In this document: piece after piece, positions 40,267-49,229 of the stretch | How positions within the stretch are numbered: the stretch's first letter is position 1 | Layout of the letters: each line of letters begins with the position of its first letter | DNA from: Escherichia phage vB_EcoM_DalCa | Sequence record: NC_054908.1 | Direction: 5' to 3' (one strand) | Length of the DNA: 64,000 nucleotides | Program-made: the position numbers and the translations under genes | Notes under the pieces: model-generated | The model's database searches: none | What the model saw: the letters and a program-made list of their open reading frames with translations, nothing else | Told to the model about the DNA's origin: nothing

Positions 40267-41445
40267 TTAAAAGTATTTTTTAAAACTCATCATAACTTTA
40301 TCATCAACATCATTATCAATCTGTGCAACAAGATAAGATGACAGTTCTACTTCTTGCGGCGCGGATTGAACATTATCAGAATTAAGGTATTCACGAATCC
40401 AAGGATATGGATGTTTAACCGGAGCATCGGTAATCGGGCATGGAAGACCACACTGTTTCATACGAGATACAGTTAAGTAATCAATAAAGCTCCACATGCT
40501 ATTTGTATTTAATCCAGGAACATCGCCATCTTTAAATAAATGAACTGCCCAATCTTTTTCTTGGCGGTTAACTTCCATGAAAATATCAACTGCTTCTTGT
40601 TCACACTCTTGAGCAATTTTAACCCATTGATCGCCATCAGTACCAGATTGAAGTTGACGAATAATATATTGTGTACCTTTAAGATGAAGCTGCTCATCAC
40701 GTGCAATGAACTTCATAATCTTGGCATTACCTTCCATGATTTCCATGTTTTTATGGAAGTTAAAGGTACACGCAAAGGATACATAAAAACGAATAGCTTC
40801 CAGAGCATTGATAACGTGCAGACAGAGATAAAGCGACTTCATCAGGTCTCGTTTACATTCTTCCAAATGAGTGAGACTGTTTGAATATGCTTCTAAATCA
40901 TATTCATTTTCAGCAAAATAACTAAAGTTTTCTTTGGCGTTTTCCCAAATACGTGTCTTGTCCAGAACATCATCATAATAACGACCAATAGATTCAGCAC
41001 GTTTCATGATAGCTTTATCTAATACAATCTCATCAAATACCTTTGACGGATCAGTATAAAGATTTCGCATAATATGAGTGTATGAACGACTGTGAATAGT
41101 TTCACTAAAAGTCCATGTAGCAACCCATGTATCAAGGCTTGGGTCTGAAATCAATGACATAAGTACAGCAGACGGTGCACGACCCTGAATGCTATCCAGA
41201 AGTGATTGATACTTCAGATTATTAGTAAAAATATTCTGCTGATATTGAGGAAGCTTATTAAACTGTGCAGCATCCATCATTAAGTTTACTTCTTCAGGAC
41301 GCCAGAAAAATGACAACTGCTTTTCGGTTAAATCTTCAAAAACTTTATGACGTTGAATATCATAACGCGCAATACCAAGACCTGAACCAAAAAACATAGG
41401 TTCTTTTAAAACATCAACTGGATTTGTATTAAAAACTGTGCTCAT
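40267..41445 (-). CDS. nrdB: Ribonucleotide reductase small subunit NrdB, uninterrupted
   Basis: 392 aa continuous ORF; di-iron ligand-like E..H motifs; order denA-nrdB-nrdA. Confidence 0.9.
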   Translation of the reverse strand: MSTVFNTNPVDVLKEPMFFGSGLGIARYDIQRHKVFEDLTEKQLSFFWRPEEVNLMMDAAQFNKLPQYQQNIFTNNLKYQSLLDSIQGRAPSAVLMSLISDPSLDTWVATWTFSETIHSRSYTHIMRNLYTDPSKVFDEIVLDKAIMKRAESIGRYYDDVLDKTRIWENAKENFSYFAENEYDLEAYSNSLTHLEECKRDLMKSLYLCLHVINALEAIRFYVSFACTFNFHKNMEIMEGNAKIMKFIARDEQLHLKGTQYIIRQLQSGTDGDQWVKIAQECEQEAVDIFMEVNRQEKDWAVHLFKDGDVPGLNTNSMWSFIDYLTVSRMKQCGLPCPITDAPVKHPYPWIREYLNSDNVQSAPQEVELSSYLVAQIDNDVDDKVMMSFKKYF

Positions 41446-41496
41446 AAATTTTCCGCTTAGTTAATAGTTGGTGACTCGTCCGTGAGTCAAATTATA

Positions 41497-43761
41497 TCAT
41501 AATTTACAGGATGAACAATCTTCAGCTTTTGGAGTTTCTATTTCATAATCATCAGTACCAGAACCGTCACGGGTATTATGATAATAGAAATTTTTTCCGC
41601 CAAAATACCAGAAATACAAAAGGTCATCAATCATTATTGACATTGGAACCTTGCCTTTAGGGAAGATTTGGGGGTCATAGTATGTATTCGCCGAAGCTGA
41701 TTGACAAACCCATTTCAGCATAATAGCTACCTGCGTAAGATAAGGTTTATTACCTTTCTTAGCTAATTTCCATGTATAATCATAAAGGTCTATGTTATGC
41801 TCAATATTGGGCACGACTTGATTAAAGGAGCCCTCTTTTGATTCTTTAACAGAGACTGGTCCACGTGGAGGCTCGATACCGTTTGTACTGTTAGAAACTT
41901 GGGAAGATGACTCACATGGCATAAGTGCTGATAGTGTGCTATTACGGATGCCAAAGAGCTTAAGGTCTTCCCGCAGCGACGACCAGTCACAAACGTATTT
42001 TGGAGCTGCGATTTGGTCAATCTTTTTATTGTACCAGTCGATAGGTAATTCGCCTCGAGACCAACGAGTGTCTGAATAATATTCACAAGGTCCTTTTTCT
42101 TTGGCGAGTTTAATGGATGCTTTAATAAGTCCATACTGTAATCTCTCAAATAGTTCATGTGTTAAATCGTTAGCATCTTCATAAGAAGCAAAGTTACTTG
42201 CCAACCAAGCTGCATAGTTAGTAACACCTACACCGAGGTTACGACGCTTTTTAGCTTTTTCTGCTTCAGGAACTGGATATCCTTGGTAATCCAAAAGATT
42301 ATCAAGAGCACGAACCTGGACTTCTGCCAATTCATTAATTTTATCTTGGTCTTGCCAGTCAAAATTATCCAGTACGAATGCAGAGAGAGTACACAATCCA
42401 ATTTCAGCATCAGGACTATTCACATCATTTGTTGGAATAGCAATTTCACAGCACAAGTTACTCTGACGAATAGGTGCCTTTTCACGAATAAACGGAGTAT
42501 AGTTATTCGTATTATCAATGAACTGTACATAAATCCTTGCTGTTCCTGAACGTTCAGTCATGAGCAATTCAAATAGTTCACGGGCTTTAATACGCTTTTT
42601 ACGAATATTAGGGTCTTTTTCTGCTGCTTCGTATAATTCACGGAAACGGTCTTGGTCTTTAAAATAAGAATAATACAGCTCTCCACCCATTTCATGTGGA
42701 CTGAACAAAGTAATGTAATCGTTCTTTCCGAATCGTTCCATCATCAAATCATTCAGTTGAACACCATAATCCATATGACGAATGCGGTTTTCTTCTACGC
42801 CTTTGTTATTTTTCAAAACGAGAAGATTTTCAACTTCCAAATGCCAAATAGGATAATAAGCAGTAGCAGCGCCGCCACGAATTCCGCCCTGTGAGCATGA
42901 TTTAACAGCAGTCTGAAAATGTTTCCAAAAAGGAATAACACCAGTATGACGCACTTCACCCATGCCAATCTTAGAACCTTCGGCACGAATCATACCAACG
43001 TTAATACCAATTCCAGCACGTTTGGAGATATATTCAACAATTGAAGCAGAAGCCTTATTAATAGACTTTAATGAATCACCTGCCTCAATAACAACGCATG
43101 AACTAAACTGCCGAGTTGGAGTACGGCAACCAGCCATAATAGGAGTTGGTAATGAAATCTGTCGAGTAGATACTGCTTCATAAAAACGAATAACATGTTT
43201 TAATCTATCAACAGGTTCATCTTGATGCAATGCCATTCCAATAGTCATAAATGCAAACTGAGGAGTTTCATAAATTTGACCAGTGGTTTTATCTTTAACT
43301 AGATATTTTTCTTTTAATTGCATCGCCCCGGAATAAGTAAATTCCATATCCCGTTCGTGCTTAATTTTTGATTCTAAAAATGTAATTTCTTCTGCTGAAT
43401 ATTTTGACAACAATTCAGGGTCATATTTACCTTCATTTACACAGTAAGAAATATGGTCAATAAATGAACGTGGTTCATACTGCCCATAAACATGCTTACG
43501 AAGAGCGAACATTAGACAACGTGCAGCTACATATTGATAATCAGGCTCTTCAACCGAAATAGAATTCGCAGCGGCCTTAATGACAATAGTCTGAATATCA
43601 TCAGTTGTCATTCCATCACGGAGATAAGATTTAATATTTTCATATAATTCATAAGGATCTACTGATGTTCCCTCAGCTGCCCAAGATAAAACTTTAATAA
43701 TTTTTTGTGGGTCAAAGCTCTGAGAAACACCACTACTTTTGATAACATTAATTAATTGCAT
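41497..43761 (-). CDS. nrdA: Ribonucleotide reductase large subunit NrdA
   Basis: 754 aa; C-terminal CSSCKL redox cysteines. Confidence 0.9.
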   Translation of the reverse strand: MQLINVIKSSGVSQSFDPQKIIKVLSWAAEGTSVDPYELYENIKSYLRDGMTTDDIQTIVIKAAANSISVEEPDYQYVAARCLMFALRKHVYGQYEPRSFIDHISYCVNEGKYDPELLSKYSAEEITFLESKIKHERDMEFTYSGAMQLKEKYLVKDKTTGQIYETPQFAFMTIGMALHQDEPVDRLKHVIRFYEAVSTRQISLPTPIMAGCRTPTRQFSSCVVIEAGDSLKSINKASASIVEYISKRAGIGINVGMIRAEGSKIGMGEVRHTGVIPFWKHFQTAVKSCSQGGIRGGAATAYYPIWHLEVENLLVLKNNKGVEENRIRHMDYGVQLNDLMMERFGKNDYITLFSPHEMGGELYYSYFKDQDRFRELYEAAEKDPNIRKKRIKARELFELLMTERSGTARIYVQFIDNTNNYTPFIREKAPIRQSNLCCEIAIPTNDVNSPDAEIGLCTLSAFVLDNFDWQDQDKINELAEVQVRALDNLLDYQGYPVPEAEKAKKRRNLGVGVTNYAAWLASNFASYEDANDLTHELFERLQYGLIKASIKLAKEKGPCEYYSDTRWSRGELPIDWYNKKIDQIAAPKYVCDWSSLREDLKLFGIRNSTLSALMPCESSSQVSNSTNGIEPPRGPVSVKESKEGSFNQVVPNIEHNIDLYDYTWKLAKKGNKPYLTQVAIMLKWVCQSASANTYYDPQIFPKGKVPMSIMIDDLLYFWYFGGKNFYYHNTRDGSGTDDYEIETPKAEDCSSCKL

Positions 43762-44078: not shown

Positions 44079-44295
44079 ATTGTTTTTCCGTTAAAACAGT
44101 AATATCGTAGTAACAGTCAGAAGAAGTTTTAACTGTGGAAATTTTATTATCAAAATACTCACGAGTCATTTTATGAGTATAATATTTTTTGCCATAAATG
44201 ATAATAGGCTGATTTGGTCCTGGAACTTCTAGCTCACTTGGATTAGGAAGTGTAAAAAGAACAACGTCAGAAGTATCTTTAAATCGTAAAATCAT
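44032..44295 (-). CDS. Hypothetical small protein between td and nrdA
   Basis: 87 aa ORF overlapping the td stop by 4 nt. Confidence 0.5.
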
Positions 44296-45152
44296 ATTGC
44301 CATTTTCCCTTTAATTGCTGGATGCGATTCATAATTTTCAAGGATAAAATCTTTCGGTTTCATGTATTCAGTTAACCAGTAAAGCTGTGTTTCGGTGTCA
44401 CAATTTCCAAACTCTATAGGCCAATCAATTTTAAGTTCACATAGTTCTTTAGGCTCACGACGTAAAATTTCTTTACATTGCTCAGTATGATTCATATAGA
44501 TGTGAGTATTACCACCAGAAAATATCAAATCTCCTGGGATAAGATTACACATCTTAGCCACAATATGCGTCAAGGCAGCGTACGAGGCAATGTTGAATGG
44601 CAATCCCAAGAAAACATCTACACTTCTTTGGTACCATTGTAAATCAAGATAACCATTACGCACATTAAACTGATAGAACATATGACAGGGCGGTAATGCC
44701 ATTTGATTGATTTCAGCTGGATTCCATGCTGAAACGATTTGACGTCGATCAGTTGGTAATTTTTTAATACGATCAATAGTTTCAACTAATTGATCCACAC
44801 CGCCGAAATCACGCCATTGTTTACCGTATATAGGACCAAGTTCACCACTATGATATCCTAGGTCTTTAGCCTGGTTTTCATAGTTATCGTCCCAAATAGT
44901 TTTACCTTGAATAAGACTACCATGTGTGCGAAGACGTAAATCATTAACATTGGTAGAACCGGAAATAAACCATAGAAGCTCAGCAATGCATGCATTCCAC
45001 GCAAGCTTCTTAGTTGTTACCGCAGGAAAACCTTTAGTTAAATCCCAACGTAATTTAGTACCGAACAAAGCAATTGTTCCTGTGCCTGTTCGGTCATCGG
45101 TTTCATAGCCATTTTCAAAAATGTCTTTAATTAAATCTTGGTATTGTTTCAT
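44292..45152 (-). CDS. td: Thymidylate synthase, uninterrupted
   Basis: 286 aa continuous ORF; active-site region [10 protein letters not shown]. Confidence 0.95.
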
Positions 45153-45197
45153 TTAGTACCTTATATAAATTATAATACATTTTATGAAGCTAAATAA

Positions 45198-45545
45198 TCA
45201 ATACGGTTTAGCATCAAATTTTCTCTCAATTTCAGGCGTGAAATATAATTCTTTACCGCGTTTGGAAAAGCGACCAATAATATGATAATTATTCTCATCA
45301 AACGTGATATTACCAATATCCATAGCTTTCAACCAAATATCGATATTTCTATCCAGCTTTATGTCAAAATTCCAATACGGTGAACTATTACCGAAAATAC
45401 TGCAAGCGGATTCAGTGAAACAACTGCTATAAATCTTGTCTTTAGGAACTACTAATTGATAGACACCTTTAATAAACTGAGGACCCTGCCACTTTGGCTG
45501 TTTCGTGTCTTTTTCTAATAGAATAGGGTAATAATTAAAATTCAT
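45198..45545 (-). CDS. Hypothetical protein located between frd and td
   Basis: 115 aa ORF flanked by short spacers; no recognisable nuclease motif. Confidence 0.6.
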   Translation of the reverse strand: MNFNYYPILLEKDTKQPKWQGPQFIKGVYQLVVPKDKIYSSCFTESACSIFGNSSPYWNFDIKLDRNIDIWLKAMDIGNITFDENNYHIIGRFSKRGKELYFTPEIERKFDAKPY

Positions 45546-45564
45546 ATTTCCGCCACGTGTTATT

Positions 45565-46394
<830 letters not shown>

Positions 46395-47567: not shown

Positions 47568-48476
47568 TTAAAGGTCATTCAAAAGGTCATCTAGGTCCGT
47601 GTCATCAGCACTAGATGAACTGCCAGAGCTTGAGCTCATAAAATCATCTTCAGTTTTTGTATTGAAGTCATCAACATTGAATGCATCCAAATCATCAGCA
47701 ACTTTATCAGCTTTCTTAGCAGCAGTTGCAGCAGCACCGCCCATCACAGCAGTTCCCATAACTTGACCGAATTTAGTGCTCAGTTCTTCAAACGATTTGA
47801 ATTTATCTTTAGAAGTCATTTCAGAAAGGTCAACCATTTGTTCGAACAGTTCTTTCTGGAAAGATTCATCGTCAATGTTTGGAATCGCAGATTGATTCAG
47901 GAATTTAGATTCGTCGTAGTTACTAAATCCAGAAACCTGTTTAACTTTCAGTACAAAGTTAGCACCTTCCCACGGACAAGTTACATCAACCGGAGTTTCA
48001 CCCATTTCAACATCAACTGCAATCATTGCGTTGATTTTATCCCAGATTTTCTTACCGAAACGGTATTTAAATACTTTACCTTCATTTTCTGGAGCAGCTG
48101 GGTCTTTTACTACAAGAATGTTAGCCCAGTAAGAAGTTTTACGTTTAACAAGACCGTACTCTTTATTGTCAGTGTTATACAAATCATTTTTACTGATGTA
48201 CTGACATACTGGACAAGAATCGTAATCACCGTGGGTAGATGAACAGTTTTCAATATACCATTTACCATTTTTCTTGAAACCGTGATTTACAAGAATTGCG
48301 AATGGTGCTTGTTCATCATTTTTAGACGGAAGAAAACGAATTACTGCTTGACCGTTACCCGCATTGTCGAGTTTCAGTTTCCACTCGCCTTTATCTTCAG
48401 AAGAAAAACCACCTTTATTTCCAGCCAGTTTAGCCATTTGTGCAGCGAGTTCAGCAGTAGATTTACGTTTAAACAT
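47568..48476 (-). CDS. 32: Single-stranded DNA-binding protein gp32
   Basis: 302 aa; acidic Ser/Asp-rich C-terminus; pseudoknot-like leader upstream; strong terminator downstream. Confidence 0.95.
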
Positions 48477-48508
48477 TTTTATTTCCTTTTTAATTTAATT
48501 AACAGTTG

Positions 48509-48543
48509 GTGCTATGACGATGTATGACCTCATAGCTGGTCAG
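48509..48543 (-). promoter_or_regulatory. Gene 32 mRNA leader pseudoknot-like element (translational operator)
   Basis: Minus strand UGACC-AGCUAUGA-GGUCA-uacaucg-UCAUAGC: two interleaved stems, followed by an A/U-rich stretch to the ATG. Confidence 0.55.
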
Positions 48544-48550
48544 TGAGGTA

Positions 48551-48576
48551 ATTATAATCTATTTATAATAAGCAAT
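48551..48576 (-). promoter_or_regulatory. Gene 32 promoter cluster (MotA-box-like ATTGCTTAT, TATAAATA and TATAAT)
   Basis: Minus strand reads ATTGCTTATTATAAATAGATTATAAT upstream of the gene 32 leader. Confidence 0.5.
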
Positions 48577-49229
48577 TAATACCTACAAGATTTCACAGTT
48601 TCAATGAAAACACTTTTAGCTTTCTGTGAATCAATATTTAAAATTTTTCTATAAGCCTTTAACTTTATAGAATAATTATTCCAGACTAAATTATCAGTCT
48701 GTTCATCATGTTTATCAATTATATTTAAAAACGAATCAAGCAAGATAAACGTTTCAAACGAAATTATATTCGATTGAAGTAGTTTAAAAATATAACTTGA
48801 TTGAACTTTTGGATTATACTCAAAGATTTCTTTAAAAGCAGAAACTTCAACTTTTTTACTAAAATAATAAATGTTGCGAATATCTTCTTCAAACTTAAAT
48901 TTAATTTGCTTTAAGCGTCCGATATATTCACGATAAAACACAAGTGCATCAGCGTCAGAGATGTCACCAATCCAAGCATCTTGGTTAGCTACAAGATTGC
49001 TAATAAAAATTAAAGTTAATTCTTTTAATTTATACTTTTCTGATAGCTTTTGGAAAAAATACTTATCCCTTCGCTTTTGATAAGCGGCATCAGACACCCG
49101 CATGCACCAATTATACTTAATTACATCATACTTTCCATTCATATGTTGTTTTATCATTAAGTATAATTTATAAACTGATTTACCATCAATGTATCTTTCA
49201 CCACCAGCAGGCATGCGGAGTTTAATCAT
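48576..49229 (-). CDS. 59: Helicase loader gp59
   Basis: 217 aa, same length as T4 gp59; order 59-32. Confidence 0.9.
   Translation of the reverse strand: MIKLRMPAGGERYIDGKSVYKLYLMIKQHMNGKYDVIKYNWCMRVSDAAYQKRRDKYFFQKLSEKYKLKELTLIFISNLVANQDAWIGDISDADALVFYREYIGRLKQIKFKFEEDIRNIYYFSKKVEVSAFKEIFEYNPKVQSSYIFKLLQSNIISFETFILLDSFLNIIDKHDEQTDNLVWNNYSIKLKAYRKILNIDSQKAKSVFIETVKSCRY

Follow-up and report, generated by a model that had tools for sequence, protein, structure and literature searches.

td.1, a small accessory gene in the frd–td junction of T4-like phages and its probable loss from T4

A small gene between frd and td is already present in the records of several T4-like phages, under more than one name. 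It is called td.1 in the T2H and T6 entries (AY262132.2 and AY262134.2) and RB32ORF229c in RB14 and RB32, and its product forms the protein family PHROG 1928. The entries of these four phages annotate it as a hypothetical protein only, while the records of the BASEL phages label it 'putative homing endonuclease'. Our full-text literature search on td.1, RB32ORF229c and phrog_1928 found no relevant paper and no published function. Two described kinds of locus are close enough for comparison. Free-standing homing endonuclease genes of T4, such as mobE and segG, are likewise small ORFs that are variably present between conserved genes of nucleotide metabolism and replication. The T4 superfamily also has a 'plastic periphery', or hyperplastic regions, in which slots are filled by variable accessory genes. 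Here we compare with these systems the frd–td junction of Escherichia phage vB_EcoM_DalCa (NC_054908.1), of which one stretch of 64,000 nucleotides, referred to as the window, was analysed.

The ORF between frd and td

On the minus strand of the window the gene order is frd, then a 115-aa ORF, then td, with short spacers on the two sides of the ORF, as a preliminary description of this DNA had reported; the spacers measure 19 nt on the frd side and 45 nt on the td side (Table 1). The encoded protein is 99% identical in amino acid sequence to the annotated td.1 of T2H and T6. It matches phrog_1928 over residues 4-111 (E 1e-35) and is a full-length member of that family, and profile searches with it recover the PHROG 1928 family alone. 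These results establish that td.1 of T2H and T6, RB32ORF229c of RB14 and RB32, the PHROG 1928 member and the ORF of the window are the same gene at the same frd–td position, with no substantive difference among them. The ORF is therefore td.1, an already known accessory gene of T4-like phages, and an ordinary one within the early frd–td–nrdA nucleotide-precursor gene cluster of the Tevenvirinae.

The td.1 protein found matches in 587 phage records by tblastn, and in 361 of these the identity was ≥90%. Phages WilhelmHis and UTI-E2 are 99.4% identical to the window in this region. The preliminary description had presented the ORF as 'extra', in the manner of an insertion, and this framing is not supported in view of the T2H and T6 copies, the 361 close matches, and syntenic homologues in seven further genera and some Mosigvirus phages. 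Whether T4 and its relatives carry a homologue at this position, which would make the ORF core, had been left as a question; relatives do carry one at the same position, but T4 does not. The Frd of the window is 90% identical to that of T4 at the amino acid level, and BLAST against T4 td showed the T4 td intron interval to be absent from the td gene of the window. Composition gave no signal of foreign origin, with a GC content of 33% for td.1 against 36% for the window and a GC3 inside the range of the neighbouring genes. An hmmsearch with three profiles found no paralogue of td.1 elsewhere within the 64-kb window.

Table 1. Features of the frd–td junction in the window, and of related loci (L numbers) in other records
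Feature	Position	Strand	Basis or remark
td.1 CDS, 115 aa, ATG start	45198..45545	-	ORF list; PHROG 1928
frd (dihydrofolate reductase), 194 aa, upstream of td.1	45565..46149	-	ORF list; annotation in matching records
td (thymidylate synthase), intronless, contiguous 286 aa, downstream of td.1	44292..45152	-	ORF list
frd/td.1 spacer, 19 nt, Shine-Dalgarno-like GGCGGA	45546..45564	-	sequence
td.1/td spacer, 45 nt, td ribosome-binding site AAGG and AT-rich promoter-like stretch (…TAGCTTCA…TATAAT…)	45153..45197	-	sequence
Direct repeat copy at frd stop, GTGTTATTTCATTTA on plus strand, contains TAAATGAAA on coding strand	45557..45571	.	at indel boundary vs T4
Direct repeat copy at td start, GTATTGTTTCATTTA on plus strand	45141..45155	.	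416 nt from frd-stop copy
81-aa ORF between frd.1 and frd	46149..46394	-	PHROG 3183
Regions of the window without T4 mobile elements	40267..43761; 44292..45152; 47568..49229		
Tandem td.1 paralogue, between td.1 and td	L004:2817-3176; L005:2808-3155; L007:2809-3159; L008:2790-3143		
Tandem td.1 paralogue, between td.1 and td, further loci	L009:2787-3134; L010:2814-3188; L014:4332-4673		
68-aa ORF (MSNKLKVKDVPNAMALFICRQ…)	L011:1235-1441; L012:1235-1441; L013:1235-1441		PHROG 9550; Tequatrovirus fPS-65, G3G6, sutha
68-aa ORF relatives	L008:3148-3354; L014:4670-4879		

Occupants of the slot across T4-like genera

The 226 weaker tblastn matches (<60% identity) come from other T4-like genera, of which seven were examined: Kanagawavirus (ZX14), Mosugukvirus (PM2), Jiaodavirus (KP17), Gelderlandvirus (S16), Marfavirus (P545), Moonvirus (CF1) and Winklervirus (Kc304). 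All seven have a diverged homologue of td.1 directly after frd and before td, and the synteny of the family is thereby established, its members at the usual site lying on the same strand directly downstream of frd and upstream of td. In these genera and in Mosigvirus SF the td.1 start overlaps the frd stop by 1-23 nt, where the window has its 19-nt spacer instead. Identity to the window in the seven genera is about 28-46% for td.1, and in the comparison made alongside its neighbours it is 31-46% for td.1, 43-56% for Frd and 72-82% for Td; the divergence of td.1 is thus similar to that of Frd, which would fit a long co-residence with frd. The td.1 family is restricted to T4-like phages, and since it holds the same slot across genera, we regard td.1 as an old resident of this position and not as an insertion in the phage of the window.

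In six of the seven genera a tandem paralogue of td.1 (about 115-125 aa) precedes td. It belongs to the same PHROG, and hhalign relates it to td.1 with a probability of 99.4% and an E-value of 4e-21. What distinguishes the paralogue is a PTIxQYKRNPxKY insertion that follows the Q-K-K-W motif. Neither Tequatrovirus nor Jiaodavirus has this paralogue. On a metagenome contig carrying a td.1 of 63% identity, the genes run frd, td.1, paralogue, 69-aa ORF, td.

A further occupant is found in fPS-65, G3G6 and sutha, where a 68-aa ORF (MSNKLKVKDVP…, PHROG 9550) overlaps both frd and td; these three phages have the td intron and lack both td.1 and the T4 junction. The 68-aa ORF is present at ≥90% identity in about 135 records, and among 508 records it never occurs together with td.1. 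The Tequatrovirus slot is accordingly in one of three mutually exclusive states, namely td.1, the unrelated 68-aa ORF, or empty, and phages that infect the same cell presumably exchange them by recombining in the conserved flanks. Both in Marfavirus P545 and on the metagenome contig, the slot has as its third ORF a relative of the 68-aa ORF with 79-81% identity to it, across genera whose Frd proteins are only about 47% identical, and 43%-identical relatives exist in the unrelated Phapecoctavirus. Because of this conservation and these relatives, the ORF may be either laterally mobile or very constrained.

The junction resembles the hyperplastic regions in being a boundary between conserved genes at which alternative small ORFs (td.1, its paralogue, the 68-aa ORF, or nothing) are found. 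It differs from them in size, as the slot is tiny, holding one to three genes, and its td.1 family is conserved across the subfamily, unlike typical hyperplastic content with its fast turnover.

The empty junction of T4

In T4 (NC_000866) frd occupies 145109..145690 and td extends to 145112, so that the two genes overlap by 4 nt (ATGA) with no ORF between them, and the overlap given in the preliminary description is correct. A three-way alignment at the junction gives a clean 416-nt indel relative to T4. The same description had proposed a search for flanking direct repeats, and such repeats exist at the frd stop and the td start (Table 1); the two copies are identical at 13 of 15 positions, nine of which form an exact match (TAAATGAAA on the coding strand). 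Their spacing of 416 nt is the exact length of the indel, and the T4 junction corresponds to one merged copy of the repeat. We found the T4-type empty junction in at least 32 records, all of them T4 isolates and close kin, including T4T, RB55, RB59, vB_EcoM_112, HY03, SG1, G28 and F1. The 43-nt junction probe used for this was designed so that it is unable to seed in td.1-bearing genomes, and the figure of 32, which comes from an exact-word search, is a lower bound.

Spontaneous deletions in T4 typically end in short direct repeats. A deletion of 416 nt between the two TAAATGAAA copies would leave the ATGA junction of T4, and we infer this mechanism for its origin. As the T4-type junction is rare and equals such a deletion, loss of td.1 in T4 is more likely than insertion in the phage of the window. 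The explanation that best covers the observations as a whole, and which we consider probable, is that td.1 is an old resident of the slot and that T4 and its closest kin have lost it. The frd/td overlap of T4, rare as it is, would then be derived and not represent the usual arrangement, which corrects the assumption of polarity that comes with using T4 as the reference.

The main alternative is that the ATGA junction is ancestral to Tequatrovirus and Mosigvirus, and that td.1 was later recombined in from another T4-like genus. RB69 has the same ATGA overlap as T4, and its junction is common to 127 Mosigvirus-type records, so that identical empty junctions exist in two genera; td.1 is carried by a minority of Mosigvirus phages, among them SF, F2 and PTK (about 14 records at 90-95% identity). 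The gene is also often more conserved than its flanks, being 93% identical between the window and SF where Frd is 60% identical, a pattern that fits either constraint on td.1 with mosaic flanks or lateral spread. Since RB69-type phages also have an empty slot, polarity within their clade is less secure. Against re-acquisition, td.1 is the majority state of Tequatrovirus (about 347 records against 32), the family holds the same slot across the subfamily, and among 5.8 billion proteins there is no donor nearer than 66% identity. Moreover, deletion between repeats can recur and yields exactly this junction in both genera; in SF, td.1 is flanked on both sides by TAAATGAA, so the same deletion could recur there. 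We therefore judge re-acquisition improbable, and favour residence of td.1 followed by its loss.

Loss of td.1 through co-conversion with the td intron and I-TevI was considered and rejected as a general rule, because a chimeric-query search found td.1 and the td intron together in 79 records; intron homing is therefore no systematic remover of td.1. A transposon or MITE-like insertion was likewise rejected. The 9-nt direct repeat is present, but the td.1 locus lacks a transposase, and its terminal inverted repeats are not convincing: the only end-proximal inverted repeat matches at 14 of 18 bases in AT-rich DNA and is among 12 pairs of this kind within 751 nt.

Sequence around the junction is mosaic. 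Between T4 and the window, identity is 90-100% over the 200 nt that end frd and the 150 nt that begin td, and divergence is greater further out, with identities of 62-80% in the central 150 nt of frd and in td from about nucleotide 150 onward. Similarly, T2H and the window share only 86% identity in Td next to a td.1 of 99% identity. Such a pattern implies that several td and frd allele classes recombine within Tequatrovirus.

A second ORF missing from T4 lies on the other side of frd, its stop overlapping the frd start (81 aa; Table 1). T4 retains about 50 nt homologous to the 5′ end of this ORF, followed by a deletion of about 190 nt, and this remnant points to a second deletion next to frd, so small ORFs appear to have been lost from T4 on both sides of the gene.

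The homing-endonuclease label and the predicted protein

The label in the BASEL records raises the possibility of a selfish element at this site: a free-standing homing endonuclease gene, or another mobile cassette, would have entered the frd–td junction as td.1 and would propagate by cutting genomes that lack it. Close relatives within Tequatrovirus, and also within Mosigvirus, differ in whether they carry td.1, its neighbours on both sides are conserved genes in a part of the genome where T4 has I-TevI, mobE and segG, and the high identities to SF and T2H contrast with the divergence of the adjoining Frd and Td, respectively. This sporadic distribution is the one thing that speaks for the label. 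Across genera, td.1 diverges as Frd does and stays syntenic, and so differs from mobE and segG in being long diverged in place, not recently spread, and also in having tandem paralogues. The ORF has no Pfam or NCBIfam match to a nuclease domain (GIY-YIG, HNH, LAGLIDADG, PD-(D/E)xK or others), in agreement with the motif inspection of the preliminary description, and no such match is consistent in 45 relatives; a nuclease-type fold was not found either, again unlike mobE and segG with their HNH or GIY-YIG domains. Nothing in the BASEL paper specifically supports the label for this ORF, and neither frd nor td.1 is mentioned in two papers on the mobile elements of T4. We conclude that td.1 is very unlikely to be a homing endonuclease gene or another selfish cassette, and that the label in deposited genomes has no support in sequence or structure.

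Several mobile elements that T4 has in this region are missing from the window. It lacks the td intron and hence I-TevI; nrdB (392 aa) is contiguous and begins 51 nt after nrdA, with no mobE, nrdB.1 or I-TevIII intron; and gene 32 is followed after about 100 nt by a 217-aa ORF, which leaves no room for segG.

The coding reality of td.1 is well established. Codon differences from the T2H copy comprise 14 synonymous and 1 non-synonymous changes, and those from the Mosigvirus SF copy 24 synonymous and 8 non-synonymous, which indicates that the gene is under purifying selection. Searched with a td.1 profile, 1.84 billion representative proteins yielded 41 clusters at 50% identity and no more, all of stand-alone proteins of 95-139 aa except two short fragments, and conservation within the family reaches down to about 20% identity. 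From its want of a known domain or literature, and from its AT-rich DNA with promoter-like matches, it might be argued that the ORF is a non-coding spacer that happens to be open, or that it masks a regulatory RNA or a promoter region, but this is refuted, as far as sequence analysis goes, by the excess of synonymous changes, the conserved protein family, the confident structure prediction given below and an Rfam scan in which the best match was an insect lncRNA at E 0.1, and we give it almost no credence.

Td.1 is a protein of 13.7 kDa with a calculated pI of 8.5. The AlphaFold2 model, built from a 45-sequence alignment (pLDDT 93.2, pTM 0.86), has strands at residues 6-12, 27-34 and 62-64, a helix at 68-76 and further strands at 80-82, 86-96 and 99-104. 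The predicted fold is a compact beta-barrel with one helix, and is loosely OB-fold-like; nucleic-acid-binding domains of this kind that serve for comparison are HIN, Teb1/RPA, S1 and the N-terminal domain of RecO. Sequence searches of Pfam, NCBIfam, PADLOC and the PDB gave no match for the td.1 ORF, Pfam gave no consistent match for 45 members of the family, and a BFVD fold search had significant matches only to uncharacterised proteins of other T4-like phages. The family is thus a small one, predicted to be well folded, found only in T4-like phages and located inside a dTMP-synthesis operon, with no Pfam model and no structural neighbour. Beyond annotation hygiene, the importance of these results is small.

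The motifs Q-x-x-W, (K/H)G(I/V)Y and GRFxKxGxxxxF of the family are all present in td.1. Over 45 sequences, W19, G91, K95 and G97 are invariant, and Q16, G27, Y29, F93 and F102 are conserved at ≥90%; these nine positions are invariant or nearly so across both paralogue groups, as is R92 within the td.1 group. Such a set of conserved aromatic and basic residues is suggestive of a binding surface, of which it would be typical, more than of an active site. There is no catalytic motif. We tentatively propose that td.1 encodes a dispensable, non-enzymatic binding module co-expressed with dihydrofolate reductase (DHFR) and thymidylate synthase (TS). Q16, W19, Y29, R92, F93 and K95 would provide the contacts of Td.1 with nucleic acid or a protein partner; besides nucleic acid, the candidate ligands are a host factor and the enzymes of the dNTP-synthetase complex. 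Td.1 would be made together with DHFR and TS before replication.

On the minus strand, the td.1/td spacer reads …TTTAGCTTCATAAAATGTATTATAATTTATATAAGG…, and its layout, a MotA-box-like AGCTTCA ahead of a -10 element, presumably resembles that of T4 middle promoters. A scan for sigma-70-like promoters gave a match in the spacer region (45201->45172) that scores only 9/12, and in Mosigvirus SF the corresponding spacer is only 15 nt long and is without the promoter-like stretch.
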